Positions 5,089 through 56,408 of a DNA stretch of 64,000 bases are shown one piece after another. Source of the DNA: an uncultured Gammaproteobacteria bacterium (GTDB taxonomy: Bacteria; Patescibacteriota; Microgenomatia; UBA8517). The DNA lies in NCBI GenBank assembly GCA_964587425.1, contig CAZPLB010000002.1, positions 31,285-95,284 on the forward strand, read 5' to 3'. Position numbers and translations under genes: made by a program. Position 1 is the first letter of the stretch. Every line of letters starts with the position of its first letter. Below the pieces are notes generated by a model. That model searched no databases. It worked only from the letters and a program-made list of their open reading frames with translations, and was not told the DNA's origin.

Positions 5089-6342
5089 TTAAGATAATTT
5101 GAAATTTTTCCTATGAATCAAGGCAAAAACTCCAAAACACATGAGAGCTAAAATTATAAGTAAGAATTGAACACCCAAAATTTCAGATATTGTAGCTGAG
5201 AAAAGAACTGGCAGCATTGTTGCAAGTGTTGTAAGAAACCAGAAATTCCCAAAAACTCTCCCCAAAAATTCCTTTGGTGTATTTTCCTGTAGATATGTAA
5301 CTGATGGAACCAAAATAGAGACAACAAGAAAACCAACTATGCCAAAAAGGATTACTCCAACAAATGTTCTGACAGAAATTACTTCAATTAATGGAAGTCC
5401 TAAAGTAACAAGTAATATATCAACACCTAAAAAGGCTATCGCCCCAAAAACAAATCTATTTTTCAACATAAACCTGGCATATTTTTTAGAAAGAATTGAG
5501 GTTCCAATTACAGCCCCAATTCCAGCAGGCATAACAATAAACAGTCCAGAACTCCCTGCCTTTATGGAAAGAATGCTTGTGGCAATTCCTGGGAGGTTAG
5601 TAACTATAACGGCTAATATGACCTGAAGCCACAACAGCAAAAGAAATGGCAGAAGAATGGTTTTGCTGTCCCTAATGAATCTATATCCTTCCAATATTTC
5701 AGTGAAGAAATGATTCACTTTGTCCTCAAACTCACCTTTCAAATTAAATCTCATCTTTGGTCTGTCATTTGGTAAGGTAAAAGTTGAAAGGTAGGCAGAA
5801 AAAAGCATGAAAGCAGCAAGAACTGTAGTTGCCCTAAATCCTAAAATTTCAGTAAATATTCCACCAAGTCCAAACCCAACAACCAAGGCAGACTGCTGGG
5901 TAATGAAAAATATTCCATTTGCCTGAGGAAGCTTCTCTTTTGGAACAAGTAGGGGCAATGCCGATGCTTCAGCTGGAACATAGAACTGATTAAGAAATGA
6001 ATAAATGAAAACTATTGCAAACGGCAAAAATACTAAATGCCTGTAAAGAAGGAGTGCATAAATTGCGATAGTAACTGCCTGAAGAATATTTGCATACATC
6101 ATTACATTGCGCTTCCCCAAAAAGTCCACTGCAGCAGCAGCTATTGGGCCAACAATGATTGCAGGCAAGGCATATGAAATCCAAATAAATGAAGTAGCAA
6201 TACTTGAATTAGTCTGCTCAAAAACCATGATGAGGATTAAAAAGCTCATCACATTAACAGTTAGCTGCGACAAAACTTGAGATACAAGTATTGCAACAAA
6301 GTTCCTGTTACTAAAAACACTATTTCTTAAAATTTTATTCAT
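5089..6342 (-). CDS. MFS-type transporter (about 12 TM segments), embedded in gatCAB operon
   Basis: Highly hydrophobic multi-helix protein. Start moved to the ATG at 6342 because the track start is a GTG; this start overlaps the gatA stop in ATGAATAA (translational coupling). Confidence 0.65.
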   Translation of the reverse strand: MNKILRNSVFSNRNFVAILVSQVLSQLTVNVMSFLILIMVFEQTNSSIATSFIWISYALPAIIVGPIAAAAVDFLGKRNVMMYANILQAVTIAIYALLLYRHLVFLPFAIVFIYSFLNQFYVPAEASALPLLVPKEKLPQANGIFFITQQSALVVGFGLGGIFTEILGFRATTVLAAFMLFSAYLSTFTLPNDRPKMRFNLKGEFEDKVNHFFTEILEGYRFIRDSKTILLPFLLLLWLQVILAVIVTNLPGIATSILSIKAGSSGLFIVMPAGIGAVIGTSILSKKYARFMLKNRFVFGAIAFLGVDILLVTLGLPLIEVISVRTFVGVILFGIVGFLVVSILVPSVTYLQENTPKEFLGRVFGNFWFLTTLATMLPVLFSATISEILGVQFLLIILALMCFGVFALIHRKNFKLS

Positions 6343-12477: not shown

Positions 12478-12897
12478 TCAAGTTTTTCTGAGGTAAAATT
12501 CGTTTTTCTTGAAGTTAAAAACAACTTCATCAAAGTAGTCAAAAAAACCTCGTCTTCCAAGTAGACCTTCTCCACTATTAGATACTTCATCGCTAAAAAT
12601 CACGGGTGCATTAAATTCAAAAGTATGCTTATCTTGAATCACTTTTAATTTTAATCCACAAACTTTTCCCTTCATTGGAGGTGCATCTTTTACTCCACCA
12701 AACGGAATTTCTTTTAGACGATTAAGATCTATTCCCAATAAACCCGCCAGTTCGGAGTGAAACACATTCGTAAATGCACCCGAGTCAAGCATCGCAGGAT
12801 AATTAAAAGCTACTCCTGTTGCTGGGTCTTCAACTCTAACCTCTAACATCGGAATTTTATCGTCTTTAATTTGAGTAAACTTGTATTTAAATTGCAT
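12478..12897 (-). CDS. Retropepsin-like aspartic protease domain protein
   Basis: MLDSGAFTNVF active-site D(S/T)G motif in a retroviral-type protease fold context, 139 aa. Confidence 0.6.
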   Translation of the reverse strand: MQFKYKFTQIKDDKIPMLEVRVEDPATGVAFNYPAMLDSGAFTNVFHSELAGLLGIDLNRLKEIPFGGVKDAPPMKGKVCGLKLKVIQDKHTFEFNAPVIFSDEVSNSGEGLLGRRGFFDYFDEVVFNFKKNEFYLRKT

Positions 12898-45025: not shown

Positions 45026-45241
45026 ATGCCGGAGTTCGAAAGTATACATTTACAAGAGATATTTGATACTGCTAAAAGTATCACCCAAAACAATGGTAAA
45101 GTTAGACAGTTTGACAGGACAGGCGCACTCAAGACAATAGCAATGCACCAAAAGATGGCACTAGAGTCAAACATAAACCCCTTTGAAGTAAGCACGGCAA
45201 TATCTAGAGGATTTAGAGCCGGTACTGAAAAAATAAATTAG
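45026..45241 (+). CDS. Small hypothetical protein (71 aa)
   Basis: ORF only; ends 1 nt before the tRNA-Val 3' end on the opposite strand. Confidence 0.3.
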   Translation: MPEFESIHLQEIFDTAKSITQNNGKVRQFDRTGALKTIAMHQKMALESNINPFEVSTAISRGFRAGTEKIN

Positions 45242-45313
45242 TGGATCCGGATGGGATCGAACCATCGACCTTACCGATGTGAACGGTACGCTCTACCACT
45301 GAGCCACGGATCC
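45242..45313 (-). tRNA. tRNA-Val (anticodon CAC)
   Basis: Acceptor GGATCCG/CGGATCC perfect, D-arm GCTC-AGTGGTA-GAGC, anticodon stem TACCG/CGGTA with loop TTCACAT, T-arm GATGG-TTCGATC-CCATC, discriminator A. Confidence 0.8.
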
Positions 45314-48443: not shown

Positions 48444-51218
48444 TTACTTTCTAGTTACCTTAAACTCACCAGTCTTAATTGAGGAAACGAGTGCACGTCT
48501 TTTAATCTCACCCTCAAATTCTTTTGGCCAAGCAGGTAAGGTCGCTTCAACCAACTCATCCAGTTTGGTTCCCAAGTTTTTGCGCTCTTCCTGAATTTTC
48601 CTCACAATATCTCGCATTTCCCCTTCTGCTTTAAGTTCTGGAGTAATAGTTGTATCAAGCTCCGCAATTAGATCTCCCAAAGTAACTCTTTTCACATTAA
48701 TCTCATCTTTTAAAACATTTTGGAATTCGACTGGAAAACGATATGTCGTTGCTAGTGAATTTAGTGGTTGTCGTAAAACAATACTACTTTCCTTTCTTAT
48801 TGCATGTGTTTTTTCAGAGACCTCTCTGACATCAATCATATTTTTCAATATATCTTTTTCATCCTTTGTTAACGATTTAGATTTAGGCCAATCTAAAAGA
48901 TGAACAGATTCCTCTTTTGTAAGATTTTTGTAAACATAATCAGCAACAAAAGGTGCAAATGGAGCAATCAGTTTACAAACTGTTGTTAAAACTTCAAAAC
49001 TGGTTTCAAAAAACCCATCATCAGTCCTACCTCTAGACCTTCTTATGTACCACTGTGAAAAATCCTTCGATACAAAGTCTTCAATTAAGTGTGTCGCGTT
49101 ATATAAGTCATAGCTATCCAAACACTCAGTGGCTTTATTCACAACATCTTGTAGATTAGTTAATATCCATCTATCTAAAACATTTTCACTTTTCTTATTT
49201 TTATTTGTTGGTTCCCAACCATTCAAATTTGCGTAAGTTACAAAATAGTTATAGCTATTCCAAAGAATTAAAAGGAATCTTTTTGTTACATCCTTCACTA
49301 GATTAGTTGAGAACTTAAAGCTAGGTCCCGGGGCTATTGTTGAAAACATGTACCATCTTGTTGCATCTGCTCCAACTTCATTTAAATGAATCCATGGATC
49401 AATAACATTACCCTTAGACTTACTCATCTTATTTCCCTTCTCATCAAGCAAGTGCCCCAAGCAAATTACATTTTTGTATGCTGTTCCCTTTTCAAGAAGT
49501 GCAGAAACTCCTTGCAGTGTATAAAACCAGCCGCGGGTTTGATCAATTGCCTCAGCTATGTAATCAGCTGGAAAATTAGCTTTAAATTTATCTTCATTTT
49601 CAAATGGATAATGCCATTGGGCAATCGGCATGGCGCCACTGTCAAACCAGCAATCAAGAACAAAGTTAACTCTCAACATCTCTCCTTCGCACTTTTTACA
49701 TTTAAATTTAACTTCATCAATAAACGGTCTATGTAAATCAAGTTCTTTCAAATCCTTGTTTGCTAAATCCGACAGTTCTTTCACACTTCCTACTAATATT
49801 GTTTCAGAGCATGAATTACATCTCCAAATAGGGAGTGGTGTTCCCCAGTATCTGCTTCTTGATAGTGCCCAATCACGATTATTCTTGAGCCACTCTCCCA
49901 TCCTTCCTTCTTTAATATGTTCAGGTACCCAATTAACAGAATTATTGTTTTCAATTAATTCTTTTTTAACTGCAGTAGTTTTTAGATACCAAGAAATCAT
50001 TGCATAATAAAGAAGTGGGGTTCCACACCTCCAGCAAAATGGGTATGTGTGTTTTATTCTCTCACTTTTAAATAAATTTCCATTTTCTTGGAGTGCCTCA
50101 ATAATTTCTTTATCAACGCTTTTTACAAATTTTCCAGCCCAAGGTTCAACTTCCCCAACAAACTCACCCTTTTCATTAACTACATGCTTCATTGGAAGGT
50201 CATACTTTTTCCCCAATTTGAAATCGTCTTCACCATACATGACTGCAGTGTGCACGATCCCTGTTCCTTCATCCATAGAAACAAAGTCCCCACTCACAAC
50301 AAAATGAGACTTCCTGTCGTAAGATATAAAATTAAAAACAGGATGATACTCCAATCCTTCAAGTTCTTTGCCCTTGTATTTTTTGACAACCTTTCCTTTT
50401 AAATCTAAATCCTTGACTCTTTTTTCAGCCAAGATTAAAAATTCATCGTGAACTTTAACTTTTACATATGATTCCTTTGAGTCAACTGCCAAAGCAACGT
50501 TTCCAGGAAGTGTCCAAGGTGTTGTCGTCCAAACAAGAAAGTAAGTATCATCCTCATTTTTCAACTTGAACTTAACAAAAATAGATGGGTCTTCAACATC
50601 ATCTTTATAGCCGAGTGCTAGTTCATGAGACGAAAGAGATGTTCCACATCTACTGCAATATGGAACAACTTTGTAATCTTCATAGAGCCACCCCTTCTCC
50701 CAAATTTGTTTTAAAATCCACCATTCACTTTCTATGTAATTGTTGTCCATAGTTTCATATGGATTAGTAAGGTCAGACCAATATCCGATACGTTTTGTCA
50801 ATTTTGTCCATTCGTCAACATACTCATAGACGCTCTTGCGGCAAAGAGCATTAAACTCCTCAATTCCATATTCCTCAATTTGTGGTTTACCAGAAATTCC
50901 TAATTGCTTTTCAACTTGAAGCTCGACAGGCAGTCCGTGACAATCCCAACCGGCTTTACGCGGAACATAATATCCTCTCATCGTTTTATATCTCGGAATT
51001 ATATCTTTGAAGGCACGCGCCTCAATGTGGTGAACTCCTGGCTTTCCGTTTGCAGTTGGTGGTCCCTCGTAAAAAACAAAATGTTTGCCGTCTTTGTTTT
51101 TTTCAACTGACTTTTCAAAAACTTTGTTCTTTTCCCATGAAGCCAAGACCTCCTCTTCCAACTTTGGAAAGTTTACTCTTGGGTCAACTGGTTCAAAATA
51201 ATTTTTTGTCTTTGCCAT
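48444..51218 (-). CDS. ileS: Isoleucyl-tRNA synthetase
   Basis: Class I HIGH region (PPTANGKPGVHH), KMSKS loop, DWALSRSRYWGTPLPIW editing/CP1-proximal block typical of IleRS; 924 aa. Confidence 0.8.
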   Translation of the reverse strand: MAKTKNYFEPVDPRVNFPKLEEEVLASWEKNKVFEKSVEKNKDGKHFVFYEGPPTANGKPGVHHIEARAFKDIIPRYKTMRGYYVPRKAGWDCHGLPVELQVEKQLGISGKPQIEEYGIEEFNALCRKSVYEYVDEWTKLTKRIGYWSDLTNPYETMDNNYIESEWWILKQIWEKGWLYEDYKVVPYCSRCGTSLSSHELALGYKDDVEDPSIFVKFKLKNEDDTYFLVWTTTPWTLPGNVALAVDSKESYVKVKVHDEFLILAEKRVKDLDLKGKVVKKYKGKELEGLEYHPVFNFISYDRKSHFVVSGDFVSMDEGTGIVHTAVMYGEDDFKLGKKYDLPMKHVVNEKGEFVGEVEPWAGKFVKSVDKEIIEALQENGNLFKSERIKHTYPFCWRCGTPLLYYAMISWYLKTTAVKKELIENNNSVNWVPEHIKEGRMGEWLKNNRDWALSRSRYWGTPLPIWRCNSCSETILVGSVKELSDLANKDLKELDLHRPFIDEVKFKCKKCEGEMLRVNFVLDCWFDSGAMPIAQWHYPFENEDKFKANFPADYIAEAIDQTRGWFYTLQGVSALLEKGTAYKNVICLGHLLDEKGNKMSKSKGNVIDPWIHLNEVGADATRWYMFSTIAPGPSFKFSTNLVKDVTKRFLLILWNSYNYFVTYANLNGWEPTNKNKKSENVLDRWILTNLQDVVNKATECLDSYDLYNATHLIEDFVSKDFSQWYIRRSRGRTDDGFFETSFEVLTTVCKLIAPFAPFVADYVYKNLTKEESVHLLDWPKSKSLTKDEKDILKNMIDVREVSEKTHAIRKESSIVLRQPLNSLATTYRFPVEFQNVLKDEINVKRVTLGDLIAELDTTITPELKAEGEMRDIVRKIQEERKNLGTKLDELVEATLPAWPKEFEGEIKRRALVSSIKTGEFKVTRK

Positions 51219-51365
51219 TAAAAAATCCGTCCTTAATCATTATACAAGGACGGACAATGCCGTGGTACCACCTTATTTTGTTCTCTTTACTGCTGTTACG
51301 GGCTTACCCGGAAAGTTCTACTTTATTCCTCTTCCAGCTCGGGATTGATAGTCCCTCAAACGCTT
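51219..51365 (-). promoter_or_regulatory. T-box riboswitch leader of ileS (antiterminator/terminator switch)
   Basis: Minus-strand RNA contains AAUAAGGUGGUACCACGG (T-box consensus AAUUAGGGUGGNACCGCGG) arranged as helix-7nt bulge UGGUACC-helix, mutually exclusive with terminator GUCCGUCCUU-loop-AAGGACGGAU plus UUUUUU directly before the AUG; bulge UGGU matches discriminator A of tRNA-Ile. Confidence 0.7.
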
Positions 51366-51371
51366 TGAAAC

Positions 51372-51400
51372 ATTATATCACCCGCAAGCGACATTGACAA
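51372..51400 (-). promoter_or_regulatory. Sigma70-like promoter TTGTCA-N17-TATAAT for the ileS leader
   Basis: Read directly from reverse complement. Confidence 0.5.
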
Positions 51401-51431
51401 AGAATCCTTTAAGAATAAAATAACCACACAC

Positions 51432-51791
51432 ATGCCAGAATTTGATCAGATAGACGAACGTGTATCACCTAGTAAATTTGCAAAACAAGAATGTAGCCTG
51501 AGATTTATATGTAATATATTAGCGAGAGGAACACTAAAAAACATATTAAATTTACCAGATAGAGACATTAAATACCTAGCGACATACACAATTCAAACAT
51601 TAGCACTCGACTATCCAGAAATTGATCTCAAGATAAAAGAACCTGAGCAACTAATAAAAATAACACTTTCCCTGCTTCCGGCTATCAAGGATAGGTTTCA
51701 AAATTGCTTCCTGGATAATAATGTTGTCGGAGAATATCATGAAACACTTCTGGAATTAAGGAAAATACAGAACCGACTTAGTAAAATGTAA
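51432..51791 (+). CDS. Hypothetical protein (119 aa)
   Basis: ORF only. Confidence 0.35.
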   Translation: MPEFDQIDERVSPSKFAKQECSLRFICNILARGTLKNILNLPDRDIKYLATYTIQTLALDYPEIDLKIKEPEQLIKITLSLLPAIKDRFQNCFLDNNVVGEYHETLLELRKIQNRLSKM

Positions 51792-52256: not shown

Positions 52257-52838
52257 ATGTATTTGCACAACAAAAATTTGTGTGCTACATTTGGCAGCAT
52301 GGGAATATCAAAAGAAATTGAAAACGAACGTTTACAATTTGGAACAAGACCAAAAACTTTCACACAAGCATTGGTTCGTTTGCCTGACCATGGAGTATTT
52401 GTGAGAGGTGACACGGAACTTGAATCGCTCATGTCTCTCCGGTTTCAATTAACCTACGCTTTAAAAATGGGTTGCTCGGCAGACTCTCTAACCGAAAGAA
52501 TGTACCCACTAGAACCAAAAGAAATGGCTCTTCTCGAAAAGTTTTCTTTCAAAAGAAATGAAGTAATCGCAACTGGTAAATGGATCGCCCTAGGGAGAAA
52601 TAAAGTATGGAATACAATGTTTGGATCCGAAGATGACGATTACAGACACTACAATGTAACATCGATTACTCCAACCCTCGACAGGAAACGACCACAGATG
52701 ATTTGCATACAAGAACACGATGATTATTCCAAAACAAGCTGGGATTGGGAAACAGACGCTATTTCAACATTCTATATTGGGATTATCACAAGCAAAGAGC
52801 TTAGTGAACTTAAGAAAGCACTCCAGGAAGAAATTTAA
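52257..52838 (+). CDS. Hypothetical protein (193 aa)
   Basis: ORF only; 4-nt tail-to-tail overlap with the ftsZ stop region. Confidence 0.35.
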   Translation: MYLHNKNLCATFGSMGISKEIENERLQFGTRPKTFTQALVRLPDHGVFVRGDTELESLMSLRFQLTYALKMGCSADSLTERMYPLEPKEMALLEKFSFKRNEVIATGKWIALGRNKVWNTMFGSEDDDYRHYNVTSITPTLDRKRPQMICIQEHDDYSKTSWDWETDAISTFYIGIITSKELSELKKALQEEI

Positions 52839-55117
52839 TTTATCTTTCGGCGAAGAAATGCTGGAATCTCAAGATCCTCTTCAACCTGAGGCTCATCTTG
52901 TGAATTATTGTTGTCATCCCCATTACTATCATCGTTTGTGTTCTGTTGGTTTTGCTGTGTTTCTCCAATCATCCCCTGTACAGGAGGCGGTTGTGTACGT
53001 GTTGTTACCCCCCTATCAATTTGTGCCATTCTGCTCCTGGTTTCATCAAATCCAGTTGCAATAACTGTAATCCTCACTTGATCTGCATAACTATCCTTTA
53101 TAACGTTTCCGTAAATAATATTTGCATCGGGGTCCGCAGCTGAAGTAATAATACGCGCTGCCTCATCAACTTCAAACATAGTTAGATCCGGTCCTCCAGC
53201 AATATTGAATAAGACTCCTCGAGCTCCTTCAATTGATAGATCTAGAAGAGGGGATGAAACTGCAGATCTTGCTGCCATCTGAGCCCTATTTTCCCCAACT
53301 CCAGTTCCAATTCCCAAAAGTGCTGTTCCAGCGTCACTCATAATGGTCTTTACATCAGCAAAGTCAACGTTAACTAGTCCTGGCACAGTTATAATTTCAG
53401 CTATACCAGCTACAGCCTGCCCTAACACTGAATCTGCTACCTTGAAAGCTTCAAGAAGTGTAACTTTACGGTCAACAACATCCATTATTCGCTGATTTGG
53501 AATAACAATAAGGGTATCAACTTCTTTCTTTAAGTTTTCAATTCCCTCTTCAGCAAGGATTGTTCTCCTAGCCCCCTCAAAACTAAATGGTTTTGTAACT
53601 ACTCCAACAGTCAATGCCCCAGACTCTTTTGCAAGCCGAGCTACAACCGGTGCAGCTCCCGTTCCAGTATTGTGTACCAAAAATCCTTCACTCACGAAAT
53701 TATGGCTTCCCTCTACTGTGATATCATAAACATCCTCTTCACCAAGATTAGTTACAGATTTGACAGCTGAAAAACCAAAGTTCTTGAAAAACTCATCATC
53801 TGTCGCTCCTCTATATCCATAAGTAAAGCCGCTCCAATGTCTTGTTCTCGTTTTTTCTTCCAAGCTTCTGTCCAGTTGATATAGTTTATACACTCTAAGA
53901 CTCCATGAGACCGCCTGAATCGGTTTTGGTGAGTTAGGAGCTTGAATAGTTCTAGTTCTCGTAGAAACATTGCCAGTCCTTAAACCCAAAACATTGCAAA
54001 GAACCTTTAATTGTTTAATGAGGTTCTCACTTGACATCTCAAACCGCAATTCAAGCTTGTCTTTACCACTATGGTTTTTTTGCTTTAGATAACTTCCATC
54101 AGCATCAGCCAATCCCAAAATAAATTGTTTTTTGTGATCATCTGAAAGCTTGAATATCCAGTTTGGAACTTCTTTCTCTTTTGCATGTTTATCTAAACCA
54201 AGTTCATAAAGTATTTCATAAACTTTCTTGGAGTTTCCATAATACCAACTAGTCGTACTTTTCTTCATTTCAATTCCAAATATGTCCTTTATTAACTTTA
54301 GATATTTACTATTTAGATCTTCTTTTACAGATGGAGAGAAATGGATTTTCCAGCTATCTTTACTTCTTGAGATCCATCCATCACCCAATAAAAATCCATA
54401 TAGTCTACAAAATTCGGGTGTAAAAGAAACTTTAGATTTAAGATTAATTTCTTCTGTGATCTCAGGAGTACTTTTTAAAATAACCACCAAATCATCTGGC
54501 TGAAGATTTTGTGCTTCCTCCCATTTAAACTTGAATTCACTAAACCTATTTTTCTTATCTGGATTTACCGGTTCAACCTTCATAAAAGGGTGATCATATG
54601 AAGCAACAAGTGCGTTGTTGTTTGTTTTCACTTCGTAAACCTTTTTTATTCCAGTTCTCATTGAAGCTAAAACTTTTCTTTTAGCTAGCTTTCCTTCATC
54701 AAGAGTGTAAACATGCGAACCTTTCTTTATTGTGTCTATTCTCACCGGTCCTTCGGGGTTTGTGTAAACCAAGGAGCTACCCCTAAGACAGCCTCCACCC
54801 ATGCCTGCAGTCACGAATATCATGTCAGATCCAACTAATAACTCCTTGATTTTTTCAACAGACTCTTCAGCTGCCATTTTACCAACTTCAGGATTTCCAC
54901 CAACTCCAAGACCTTTAGTCAGTTTCTCACCAATTTGAACTTTAGTAGGAATGCTATTTGAAAGAAGAACTTGAGCATCTGTATTAACTGCAATAAATTC
55001 AACCCCGCTAATGAGTCCACCATCAACCATGGATTCAACAGCATTGCCGCCGCCGCCGCCAACACCAATAACTTTAATTTTTGCAATTCTCGCCGAATCA
55101 GGTTTAACTAGCGCCAT
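52835..55117 (-). CDS. ftsZ: Cell division GTPase FtsZ, interrupted by an in-frame intein (760-aa precursor)
   Basis: N-extein KVIGVGGGGGNAVESM..FVTAGMGGG and C-extein TGTGAAPVVARLAKE..GARR.. reconstitute the tubulin signature GGGTGTG; acidic C-terminal tail with conserved ..DLEIPAFLRR.. FtsA-binding peptide. Confidence 0.85.
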   Translation of the reverse strand: MALVKPDSARIAKIKVIGVGGGGGNAVESMVDGGLISGVEFIAVNTDAQVLLSNSIPTKVQIGEKLTKGLGVGGNPEVGKMAAEESVEKIKELLVGSDMIFVTAGMGGGCLRGSSLVYTNPEGPVRIDTIKKGSHVYTLDEGKLAKRKVLASMRTGIKKVYEVKTNNNALVASYDHPFMKVEPVNPDKKNRFSEFKFKWEEAQNLQPDDLVVILKSTPEITEEINLKSKVSFTPEFCRLYGFLLGDGWISRSKDSWKIHFSPSVKEDLNSKYLKLIKDIFGIEMKKSTTSWYYGNSKKVYEILYELGLDKHAKEKEVPNWIFKLSDDHKKQFILGLADADGSYLKQKNHSGKDKLELRFEMSSENLIKQLKVLCNVLGLRTGNVSTRTRTIQAPNSPKPIQAVSWSLRVYKLYQLDRSLEEKTRTRHWSGFTYGYRGATDDEFFKNFGFSAVKSVTNLGEEDVYDITVEGSHNFVSEGFLVHNTGTGAAPVVARLAKESGALTVGVVTKPFSFEGARRTILAEEGIENLKKEVDTLIVIPNQRIMDVVDRKVTLLEAFKVADSVLGQAVAGIAEIITVPGLVNVDFADVKTIMSDAGTALLGIGTGVGENRAQMAARSAVSSPLLDLSIEGARGVLFNIAGGPDLTMFEVDEAARIITSAADPDANIIYGNVIKDSYADQVRITVIATGFDETRSRMAQIDRGVTTRTQPPPVQGMIGETQQNQQNTNDDSNGDDNNNSQDEPQVEEDLEIPAFLRRKIN
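53669..54790 (-). mobile_element. Intein (374 aa) with LAGLIDADG homing-endonuclease domain, inserted in the FtsZ G-box
   Basis: Starts with Cys (CLRGSSLVYT, block A) immediately after GMGGG and ends ..FLVHN before the +1 Thr; two LAGLIDADG-type motifs (YGFLLGDGWI, ILGLADADGSY). Confidence 0.75.
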
Positions 55118-55148: not shown

Positions 55149-56408
55149 CTAGGGCAGAAGATCTTTAATACTTTCTATGACTTTACCAAGAATTCCCGAA
55201 TTTGGCAACCGCATCTTCTGACCAATACCACCCTGCGGTTGCACTATACTCTGTCGGCTGCCGTAAAGCAAAAGACCAACACAAACAGAATATGGTGGAT
55301 CCATTATTTCATCTACTAGTCCTCCAACTCCACCTGGCTTTCCAAGTCGAACAGGAAGCTGCATGCTGCGCTTAGCCGAATCAATTACTCCAACAGTCAT
55401 TGCCCCTCCTCCAGTTACAACAGCTCCTGATGGAATTTTATTAATAAGGTTCGCCTTCTCCAAGTCGAGTTTCACCATAGTAAAAATTTCATTCAACCTC
55501 GGTCTTATAATCCCTTCCACCAAAGTTCTTCTTGAAACTTTCTTTACTTCCTTAGTATCAGGATCTGTTATCTCAATACTATCCTTAGATTCCTTTTGTT
55601 TGAAGTCCTCAGAAAGCGACAATTTAATGCGCTCTGCAGCTTCAAGTGAAACCCTGAGTCCAATCGCCAAATCATTTGTAACGTTACGAGCTCCAATCGG
55701 AAGCGAGCCGGAATACGAAAGGCTTCCATCAACATAAGCTGCAATGGTAGTAGTTCCAGCCCCAATATCAATTAGTACACACCCTAATTCTTTTTCAGTC
55801 TCAGACAAAACTGAGTAGGATGCAGCAAGGCCTGAAAACACAATTCCTTCAATCGCAATCCCAACCTCATTTGTAGTTTTTGAAAGGTTTTTCAAAGCTG
55901 GAGATGAAGCCGTAATAAGATGGGTGAGGACTTCAAGCCTGACTCCAGTCATTCCAACTGGATCTTTGACTCCAGCCTCGCCGTCAACTATAAATTCCTG
56001 TGGAATAACATGAATTATCCCCCGAGATGCCGGTTGTGGAAAAGCTCGAGCCGCCTCAATCACACGCTCTATATCATTTTGCGTAACTTCCCCCTGAGGA
56101 TCTGAAACTGCAACAACTCCTGTTGAGTTTTGGGATGAAATATGTCCGCCACCAACAGAAACAAATGCGCTGCTCAGACTATACCCAGCCATCCGCTCTG
56201 CAGCTTCAACTGATGAAATAGTTGCTTCAACCGCCTCTTCAATGTCAACTATCTGTCCCTTCTTCACTCCTCGCGATGGGGTAGTGGCCGCGCCAACTAC
56301 ATTAATGGAAGTTTCAAAAGAAATAGAATCAACAATGACTTGACCAATTATGGTCGTTATTTTTGAAGACCCAATATCTATTCCAGCTATAATTTTGTTT
56401 TTACCCAT
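55149..56408 (-). CDS. ftsA: Cell division protein FtsA (actin-like ATPase)
   Basis: N-terminus IAGIDIGSSKITTIIGQ phosphate-1 motif and overall actin fold signatures (VLIDIGAGTTTIA). Confidence 0.85.
   Translation of the reverse strand: MGKNKIIAGIDIGSSKITTIIGQVIVDSISFETSINVVGAATTPSRGVKKGQIVDIEEAVEATISSVEAAERMAGYSLSSAFVSVGGGHISSQNSTGVVAVSDPQGEVTQNDIERVIEAARAFPQPASRGIIHVIPQEFIVDGEAGVKDPVGMTGVRLEVLTHLITASSPALKNLSKTTNEVGIAIEGIVFSGLAASYSVLSETEKELGCVLIDIGAGTTTIAAYVDGSLSYSGSLPIGARNVTNDLAIGLRVSLEAAERIKLSLSEDFKQKESKDSIEITDPDTKEVKKVSRRTLVEGIIRPRLNEIFTMVKLDLEKANLINKIPSGAVVTGGGAMTVGVIDSAKRSMQLPVRLGKPGGVGGLVDEIMDPPYSVCVGLLLYGSRQSIVQPQGGIGQKMRLPNSGILGKVIESIKDLLP

Follow-up and report, generated by a model that had tools for sequence, protein, structure and literature searches.

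The window analysed here, by which we mean the whole 64,000-nucleotide stretch of contig CAZPLB010000002.1 from a member of the Patescibacteriota, carries on its minus strand the gene for isoleucine--tRNA ligase, ileS (48444-51218, 924 aa; TIGR00392 935.6 bits, cutoff 621), and the question raised by this locus is whether the short leader in front of ileS can be a working T-box riboswitch. A preliminary description had read it in that way from the sequence, as a compact T-box with a minimal Stem I. We suggest that the leader is a functional T-box that senses uncharged tRNA-Ile(GAU) and controls ileS, that it is class III-like, and that its terminator probably doubles as a sequestrator of the Shine-Dalgarno (SD) sequence. 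We hold this composite reading with good confidence, consider it nearly certain that the leader is a functional tRNA-Ile T-box, and regard termination of transcription as a likely real output of it. The whole element lies within window positions 51219-51400 on the minus strand, to which the coordinates of its parts refer.

Transcription is predicted to start at approximately 51365 from a promoter scoring 11/12 in the promoter scan, with the -35 hexamer TTGTCA (51400-51395), a 17-nt spacer and the extended -10 element TGaTATAAT (51372-51380, with TATAAT at 51377-51372 and TG at 51380-51379). The predicted start is the first nucleotide of Stem I and gives a leader of 147 nt to the ileS AUG, the length proposed in the preliminary description. 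The near-consensus T-box sequence AAUAAGGUGGUACCACGG lies at 51277-51260 and aligns with high posterior probability to the Rfam T-box family, RF00230. Both this alignment and folding give the antiterminator AAGG-[UGGUACC]-ACGG-CAUUGU-CCGU-CCUU (51274-51246), consisting of helix A1 (AAGG/CCUU), the 7-nt bulge UGGUACC (51270-51264), helix A2 (ACGG/CCGU) and the loop CAUUGU; the UGGU of the bulge would pair with the 3' ACCA of the tRNA. Folding and RNAeval place a competing hairpin, UCCGUCCUUG-UAUAAUGAU-UAAGGACGGA, at 51254-51226, with a 10-bp stem and a 9-nt loop, followed by a U6 tract (51220-51225), a single A and the ileS AUG at 51218. A simple terminator scan missed this hairpin only because it allowed loops of up to 8 nt. 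The 5' arm of the terminator, UCCGUCCUUG, is the 3' strand of the antiterminator, and the strand common to both folds is UCCGUCCUU. The two folds are mutually exclusive, with calculated energies of -4.4 kcal/mol for the antiterminator and -14.7 kcal/mol for the terminator (-14.1 to -14.7 for the hairpin), a calculated asymmetry that fits the usual default-OFF arrangement of T-boxes. The preliminary description had foreseen the two competing structures and the position of the U tract, and overlooked an SD-like UAAGGA (51235-51230), which lies 11 nt upstream of the AUG and is part of the 3' arm of the terminator. Because this arm holds the only SD-like sequence in the leader, which would be the ribosome-binding site, the hairpin should hide that site and probably blocks translation as well.

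The 5' half of the leader is an ultrashort Stem I (51336-51364; Rfam alignment and covariation) made of a basal AGC/GCU helix, a kink-turn (K-turn), the 4-bp helix GGGA/UCCC and the 7-nt loop CUAUCAA. Judged by sequence pattern, the K-turn is a GA motif with the bulge GUUU and GA opposite GA (AGC-GUUU-GA...GA-GCU). That Stem I is minimal, as had been supposed from the leader length, is confirmed by the RF00230 alignment, in which 78 Stem I positions are replaced by 7 nt and in which no AG bulge, distal loop or interdigitated double T-loop platform (IDTM) is found in the window's Stem I; since the predicted transcript begins at the K-turn, a longer one could not be accommodated. The specifier hairpin GGGACUAUCAAUCCC (51355-51341) presents the isoleucine codon AUC (51349-51347) with a 3' purine, A51346, in its apical loop (51346-51349), and AUC fits the ileS gene downstream. 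The Rfam alignment further identifies a truncated Stem II (51310-51335), in which a basal GGAAG/CUUUCC helix surrounds the strands AGAGGAA and AGUAGAA, joined by UAA, purine strands that would form an S-turn, and, with high posterior probability, a Stem IIA hairpin, CGGG-UAAG-CCCG, with an F-box-like CCGUAA (51296-51310). A purine-rich linker, CAGCAGUAAAGAGAACAAAAU (51275-51295), leads to the T-box and is single-stranded in the fold centroid. Stem III is absent: 19 Rfam positions correspond to 4 nt here and the centroid shows no hairpin in the linker. In total, aptamer and antiterminator span 120 nt, compared with 219 positions in the Rfam model.

Combining these elements with established T-box biology (PMC7583486, PMC10482949), on which the individual steps rest, we suggest a model in which transcription from approximately 51365 would begin directly at Stem I, the AUC triplet in the 7-nt apical loop would pair with the GAU anticodon of tRNA-Ile, and the S-turn of Stem II would clamp the codon-anticodon helix and in that way make up for the lack of an elbow-binding platform. 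The 3' ACCA of an uncharged tRNA would pair with the UGGU of the bulge, by which the antiterminator would be stabilized and UCCGUCCUU tied up; RNA polymerase would then read through, with the SD arm single-stranded. With charged tRNA, or with none, UCCGUCCUU would enter the 10-bp terminator, whose U6 tract lies 1 nt short of the AUG, and transcription would stop. On full-length mRNA the same hairpin would also block ribosome binding, a single switch thus acting at both levels.

If this model is correct, the structures should be maintained in relatives. These were identified through the IleS protein, a search that is unbiased for the leader and gave eight close ones (about 72-80% identity). A homologous leader is present in four of the eight (L057, L059, L002 and L014; comparison loci are cited by L numbers), and L098, found later, also has it. 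The AUC-A loop is kept in the four protein-found carriers without being forced by the search, and the helix under it exists in compensatory variants among the leaders (GGGA/UCCC, GAAAG/CUUUC, AGAG/CUCU, GGA/UCC, GGGG/CCCC and GAGG/CCUC), which argues for the specifier hairpin of the preliminary description. In L057, whose IleS is about 80% identical to that of the window, hairpin, U7 and AUG follow one another as in the window, and Stem I and Stem II carry compensatory changes. No T-box was found upstream of ileS in the close IleS relatives L001, L058 and L060, and this absence implies that the riboswitch has been gained or lost repeatedly within the window's clade. In these three (IleS 72-75% identical), the region before ileS holds an ordinary promoter only (L001 2650-3010; L058 and L060, upstream of 1501). 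A scan of genome contigs with the IleS protein yielded mostly distant or irrelevant IleS sequences and the leader only in L002 and L014.

A composite pattern derived from five leaders, ATCA-N6-AGCT-N7-37-TAGAA-N12-42-AAGGTGGTACCRCG, matches 46 stretches in a metagenome collection in which, by a rough estimate, fewer than one match is expected by chance. Further instances of the leader number 50 and distinct leaders, including that of the window, 45. Wherever enough downstream sequence exists behind the metagenome matches, ileS either is the next gene or comes after a gap, and in 337 kb of family contigs (GC content 29-53%) no gene other than ileS was found after the element. With R1, a covariance model of the family, the window leader reaches 89.5 bits. 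Hosts or IleS homologues of the family are named Patescibacteria, Microgenomates, Paceibacterota or Nomurabacteria. For the window's own IleS the nearest named proteins belong to 'Patescibacteria group bacterium' (73% and 67% identity), followed by 'Candidatus Microgenomates bacterium' (64%), Amesbacteria (59%) and Woykebacteria (55%); on this basis the host is most probably a member of the Patescibacteria allied to Microgenomates. The IleS proteins behind the metagenome leaders have 1130-1190 aa and named relatives in Candidatus Paceibacterota, Pacebacteria and Nomurabacteria (Parcubacteria); because these relatives are Parcubacteria, the leader family spans at least two major lineages of the candidate phyla radiation (CPR), Microgenomates-like organisms and Parcubacteria. 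Its distribution is patchy: neither a loose T-box motif nor model R1 placed the element before ileS in named Woesebacteria, Levybacteria, Saccharibacteria, Kaiserbacteria, Yanofskybacteria, Berkelbacteria and DPANN loci. The Parcubacterial IleS proteins (L061-L106; for example L088 4546-8073 and L070 288-3869) are fused to PF00300, a histidine phosphatase domain, and some homologues of these proteins also have a PF01966 HD domain.

The family leaders share the plan of the window leader. Stem I usually has the form AGC-GUU-GA-A-[GGGG]-AUAUCA-[CCCC]-G-GA-GCU, that is, a textbook K-turn, a helix of 3-5 bp and a loop of 6-9 nt, mostly 6 nt as in AUAUCA; L072, L093 and L061 have an 'intermediate' Stem I with an additional distal hairpin. 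In all 45 leaders a TANNNT hexamer resembling a -10 element ends 3-11 nt (median 6) before the K-turn stem; given that such hexamers often arise by chance in AT-rich DNA, its position is supporting evidence only; a -10-like element just before the K-turn would make the visible length of Stem I its maximum. Stem II has a base that covaries and, beyond it, the purine string AAGAAA, a distal hairpin that varies and (G)AGUAGAA; GAA...AGUAGAA is nearly invariant, with UAGAA having been specified in the search pattern. The segment from Stem II to the T-box holds either a IIA hairpin (13 leaders including that of the window), a Stem III hairpin (about 12) or neither. About two thirds of the family lack the IIA hairpin; where it is present, its closing pair changes from C-G to G-C in L071 and L086. 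The median length of aptamer plus antiterminator is 128 nt, and the shortest, in L014, is 84 nt. This minimal T-box of about 84 nt (L014 2897-2982) has the K-turn, a Stem I of 2-3 bp and a UUAUCAA loop, followed by a 24-nt linker without Stem II, IIA or Stem III and then by the antisequestrator and an SD-pairing helix; the same sequence, present in L014 on a GTDB genome contig, recurs identically in L074 on a JGI metagenome contig.

The number of distinct leaders allowed the two alternative folds to be examined by covariation, with partner strands and every helix counted left free to vary by the search pattern. For the antiterminator state we used a structure-agnostic MAFFT alignment (A2) of the 45 distinct leaders and 19 pairs, with controls in which the 3' partners were slid by 1-3 columns. 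In the aptamer/antiterminator structure 92.8% of cells are paired, compared with 34-57% after sliding; 10 of the 19 pairs show changes on both sides, and the double-change cells amount to 60 versus 16.9+-3.2 in shuffled data, a value that 0/500 shuffles reach. All four pairs of the Stem I upper helix and all four of the Stem II base covary. Helix A2 contains a purine-pyrimidine (R-Y) pair that 33 leaders have as A-U, 11 as G-C and one as G-U, and the A1 3' strand CCUU, which was not in the search pattern, is invariant. The base of the terminator, examined over seven pairs in alignment A1, behaves in the same way (92.4% paired versus 31-46% slid; 20 double-change cells versus 4.6+-1.8 shuffled, with 0/500 reaching the observed value). 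Moreover, the two folds covary with each other: the T-box R, the shared-strand Y and the terminator partner are A/U/A in 33 leaders and G/C/G in seven, the exceptions being L002, L014, L059 and L085, which lack a U tract and belong to the window's subclade, and L096, which has a G-U wobble. As read from the alignments, this three-way pattern is what one would expect if the shared strand alternates between two helices. Covariation thus bears out the antiterminator as well as the terminator of the preliminary description. Within the antiterminator, L063, L073 and L083 (with a variant in L082) carry a conserved insertion hairpin of about 30 nt, GUUCGACAAGCUCACCGUAAACGNGCUUGAGA, in the A2 loop, which recalls the helix-A2 insertions noted in review for translational T-boxes.

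What, then, is the output of the switch? A hairpin before a U-run was reported in 39 of the 51 stretches scanned (window included). Most of these hairpins have 17-22 bp and -20 to -29 kcal/mol and are followed by U5-7; the runs in the 38 other leaders with a hairpin contain 4-7 U, mostly U5-7. In form, to judge by stem and U-run, these hairpins are transcription terminators. In most family members the ileS AUG lies 5-130 nt past the terminator, and the abutment of U tract and AUG seen in the window is shared by L057, where the tract is U7, L077 and L083. In the window's subclade the minimum free energy fold of all seven members pairs ...CGYCCUU with the AAGG region. In the closest relatives without a U tract the CCUU strand pairs with an AAGG(A/G) SD located 2-5 nt upstream of the start codon; additional CCG/CGG pairs lengthen this SD-pairing helix in the window and L057, where U6-7 comes after it. 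From these sequences we read one helix as a candidate terminator in Parcubacteria, a putative SD sequestrator in most near relatives of the window, and both in the window and L057.

The relatives without a U tract bring up the most serious alternative, namely that the window T-box acts on translation only, its hairpin being an SD sequestrator as in the ultrashort ileS T-boxes of Actinobacteria and U6 an incidental A/U-rich spacer in a genome of 36% GC. In its favor, UAAGGA forms part of the hairpin's 3' arm; L002, L014, L059, L085 and L098 lack a U tract and use the same CCUU strand to pair with an AAGG SD; and the published ultrashort class is described as translational. However, the window hairpin is lengthened to 10 bp by CCG/CGG with U6 directly after it, and L057 has a U7 tract in the corresponding position; the probability of T6 arising by chance at a fixed site is about 0.001 (an estimate, with a T frequency of about 0.32), the U tract forces the SD to a suboptimal 11 nt, which is sensible only if the tract itself is selected, and about 38 other family members use unmistakable terminators. 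Given these considerations, we regard a purely translational switch as unlikely and favor a hairpin that terminates transcription and sequesters the SD.

A second alternative is that the leader is a decaying or constitutive remnant that does not bind tRNA, with a hairpin that is a fixed attenuator or serves nothing. In agreement with decay, the Rfam score is below threshold, the distal elements of Stem I and Stem III are lost, Stem II is truncated, and the leader is absent before ileS in L001, L058 and L060 and so is dispensable in some lineages. Set against this, all functional core elements are intact, the compensatory substitutions between the window and L057 and across the 45 leaders from two CPR superphyla point to purifying selection on structure, and actinobacterial T-boxes with the same reduced Stem I have been found to be functional in experiments reported in the literature. 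A remnant is in our view highly improbable.

The expectation that Rfam would recognise the leader held in part. The score of 45.4 bits falls short of the gathering score of 93; under permissive filters RF00230 aligns its model positions 1-219 to the leader, with E=5.6e-9 for a 401-nt region and E=8.9e-7 for the 64-kb window searched with all 4227 families. Posterior probabilities are high for the K-turn, Stem II, Stem IIA and the T-box/antiterminator, and the score falls short because the distal Stem I positions and Stem III are deleted. The composite pattern, with 25.5 specified bases, has one match in the window and 0 in 100 shuffles. A chance resemblance, in which an ordinary promoter-proximal hairpin or terminator happens to carry a T-box-like 14-mer, has the failed gathering score as the only point in its favor and is effectively refuted, its probability being negligible, by the window-wide E=8.9e-7, a specifier that fits the gene and 50 homologous instances upstream of ileS with covariation. 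One further weak R1 match in the window, at 55460-55594 (17.3 bits, E=0.51), lies inside the ftsA open reading frame (ORF) and was rejected as noise.

Several observations weigh against a T-box that terminates transcription as proposed here. At the gathering threshold Rfam reports five tRNAs and no T-box in the whole window. Neither the window nor 40 loci yielded a tRNA-Ile(GAU) gene, and the pairing was judged against the universal GAU anticodon and A73-CCA. Stem III, the usual buttress of the tRNA 3'-end helix, is missing from the window leader, and no convincing covarying candidate for the partner of a IIB pseudoknot was found by eye among the 13 leaders with IIA. The search pattern prescribed AUCA, AGCU, UAGAA and AAGGUGGUACCRCG, and their invariance among the metagenome matches is therefore not independent evidence. 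The 11-nt spacing between SD and AUG is long, the terminator of the window with its 10 bp is below the family norm of 17-22 bp, and the five closest terminator-less relatives (L002, L014, L059, L085 and L098) have SD pairing only, meaning that the window's U6 could be incidental. Concerning the tRNA, the Parcubacterial contig L094, which also carries an ileS T-box, encodes a tRNA-Ile(UAU) at 12731-12805 on the minus strand with A73 and no encoded CCA; A73 of this tRNA is compatible with the UGGU bulge.

With respect to known systems, the architecture of the leader corresponds to that of the ultrashort ileS T-box of Actinobacteria and not to a shortened Firmicute type. Ultrashort, or class III, ileS T-boxes are described from Mycobacterium tuberculosis, M. 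smegmatis and Nocardia farcinica, with structures 6UFG and 6UFM (Sherwood, Grundy & Henkin 2015, as summarised in PMC7583486, PMC10482949 and bioRxiv 10.1101/2023.02.28.530422). The class defined by Henkin and co-workers as ultrashort is class III of the four-class scheme: it has a short Stem I without IDTM and a specifier in an apical loop of 5-6 nt, Stem II is required, all its members are located upstream of ileS, and it is said to 'mostly regulate translation initiation'. The word 'mostly' leaves room for transcriptional ultrashort cases, unreported or mentioned briefly. The window leader shares with this class the short Stem I without IDTM, AUC plus a purine in a small apical loop, Stem II with its putative S-turn, the IIA hairpin, the canonical T-box bulge, the A1 and A2 helices and, together with its family, the exclusive association with ileS; this likeness is judged from published descriptions of the class, and both homology and convergence could account for it. 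It differs in that (i) the hosts are CPR/Patescibacteria instead of Actinobacteria, (ii) the window and most of the family have an intrinsic terminator with a U tract, the published class being translational, (iii) Stem III is absent in the window and many members, and the family often lacks Stem III and/or IIA, and (iv) the apical loop of the window has 7 nt compared with the 5-6 nt reported.

With the class I T-boxes of Firmicutes (RF00230; for example Bacillus subtilis tyrS) the leader has in common the K-turn, the specifier with its purine, the putative Stem II S-turn, IIA with an F-box-like CCGUAA, the T-box, the competition between antiterminator and a terminator with U tract, and default-OFF energetics. 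By contrast, it lacks approximately 78 Stem I positions (AG bulge and distal loop, that is, the platform for the tRNA elbow) and Stem III, has 120 nt in place of the 219 positions of RF00230, and reaches half of the gathering threshold of that model. The glyQS type (class II) is likewise a naturally reduced T-box and works by transcription attenuation; glyQS keeps the long Stem I with IDTM and drops Stem II, whereas the window leader does the opposite by dropping the platform and keeping Stem II, and its specificity is for isoleucine and not glycine. In dual-acting riboswitches a single helix terminates transcription and hides the ribosome-binding site. The window leader appears to resemble these, given that its terminator has the SD-like UAAGGA in the 3' arm and a U tract that abuts the AUG; this abutment recurs in L057, L077 and L083 and not in most family members. 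At the level of sequence, the leader qualifies as a T-box on all defining features other than the Rfam cutoff and those tied to a long Stem I.

This assignment bears on how T-boxes are thought to work. Transcriptional T-boxes generally need a long Stem I and the IDTM for kinetic reasons: the long Stem I is explained by the need to capture the tRNA before the polymerase reaches the terminator, and the ultrashort Stem I by an equilibrium-driven translational mode (PMC7583486). Platform-less terminators in the CPR, if true, would contradict the generalisation that co-transcriptional T-boxes require a long Stem I and IDTM for fast tRNA capture, and about 40 leaders that combine a strong intrinsic terminator with the lack of a platform would, as a natural family, provide a direct test of the kinetic argument. 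We consider it an even bet that the leaders represent a large, so far undescribed, CPR-wide T-box lineage that terminates transcription without an elbow platform and often without Stem III or IIA, down to 84-120 nt, and in which, within the window's clade, the helix evolves between terminator, dual and pure SD-sequestrator forms. A full-text literature search, outside which many subscription papers lie, found no paper combining T-boxes with Patescibacteria, Parcubacteria or the candidate phyla radiation, and a prior mention is possible. The kind of riboswitch is well known; a platform-less transcriptional lineage in the CPR would come as news to specialists in T-boxes. The whole family escapes standard annotation because the Rfam gathering score excludes the leaders and the short-Stem-I model of TBDB was run on Actinobacteria only.

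From the perspective of the host, CPR/Patescibacteria, which are largely unable to make amino acids, appear to monitor the charging of tRNA-Ile to set the level of isoleucyl-tRNA synthetase. The leaders, at 84-128 nt, would be among the smallest natural T-box scaffolds and useful in structural and engineering work, and the window's clade would document how one helix is reused as the output changes between transcriptional and translational.

Some further observations concern other members of the data set. L085 (1899-2049) has a leader very like that of the window, with the same Stem II and IIA, before an IleS whose first 450 residues show only about 34% identity; either a different type of IleS behind the same leader or a contig of poor quality could explain this. 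An apparent second T-box in L106 (1291-1443 on the plus strand and 5295-5444 on the minus strand) consists of mirrored copies on a 6.7-kb contig with fragmented ORFs and is most likely an inverted-duplication assembly artefact. R1 matches of 29-41 bits in low-GC metagenome-assembled genomes labelled 'Bacilli' or Erysipelotrichaceae, namely L046 (1810-1930) and L009, L011, L012 and L048 (at approximately 1800-1990), were set aside as a different, terminator-type T-box. This T-box lies about 1 kb upstream of ileS, where it precedes a gene for a 319-aa multi-pass membrane protein whose stop overlaps the start of ileS.

In the window (GC 32-40%) the ileS promoter is paired with a divergent one, TTGACA-16 nt-TAAAAT (11/12; 51394-51421, plus strand), which precedes a 119-aa ORF (51432-51791) that is unannotated and has no Pfam match. 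The two -35 hexamers are reverse complements of each other (TTGACAA/TTGTCAA), and the same 7 bp serve both promoters. A sub-threshold Rfam match to 'Plastid-ycf2' at 45241-45313 (38.3 bits, gathering 65.7) lies opposite the strand of tRNA-Val(CAC) and is almost certainly an artefact of tRNA-like structure. The gene neighbourhood in the window is ftsA-ftsZ ... ileS-ftsW, and the FtsZ gene (52835-55117, minus strand, 760 aa) is split, according to Pfam, by an intein with a LAGLIDADG homing endonuclease located between the Tubulin/FtsZ GTPase domain and the FtsZ C-terminal domain.

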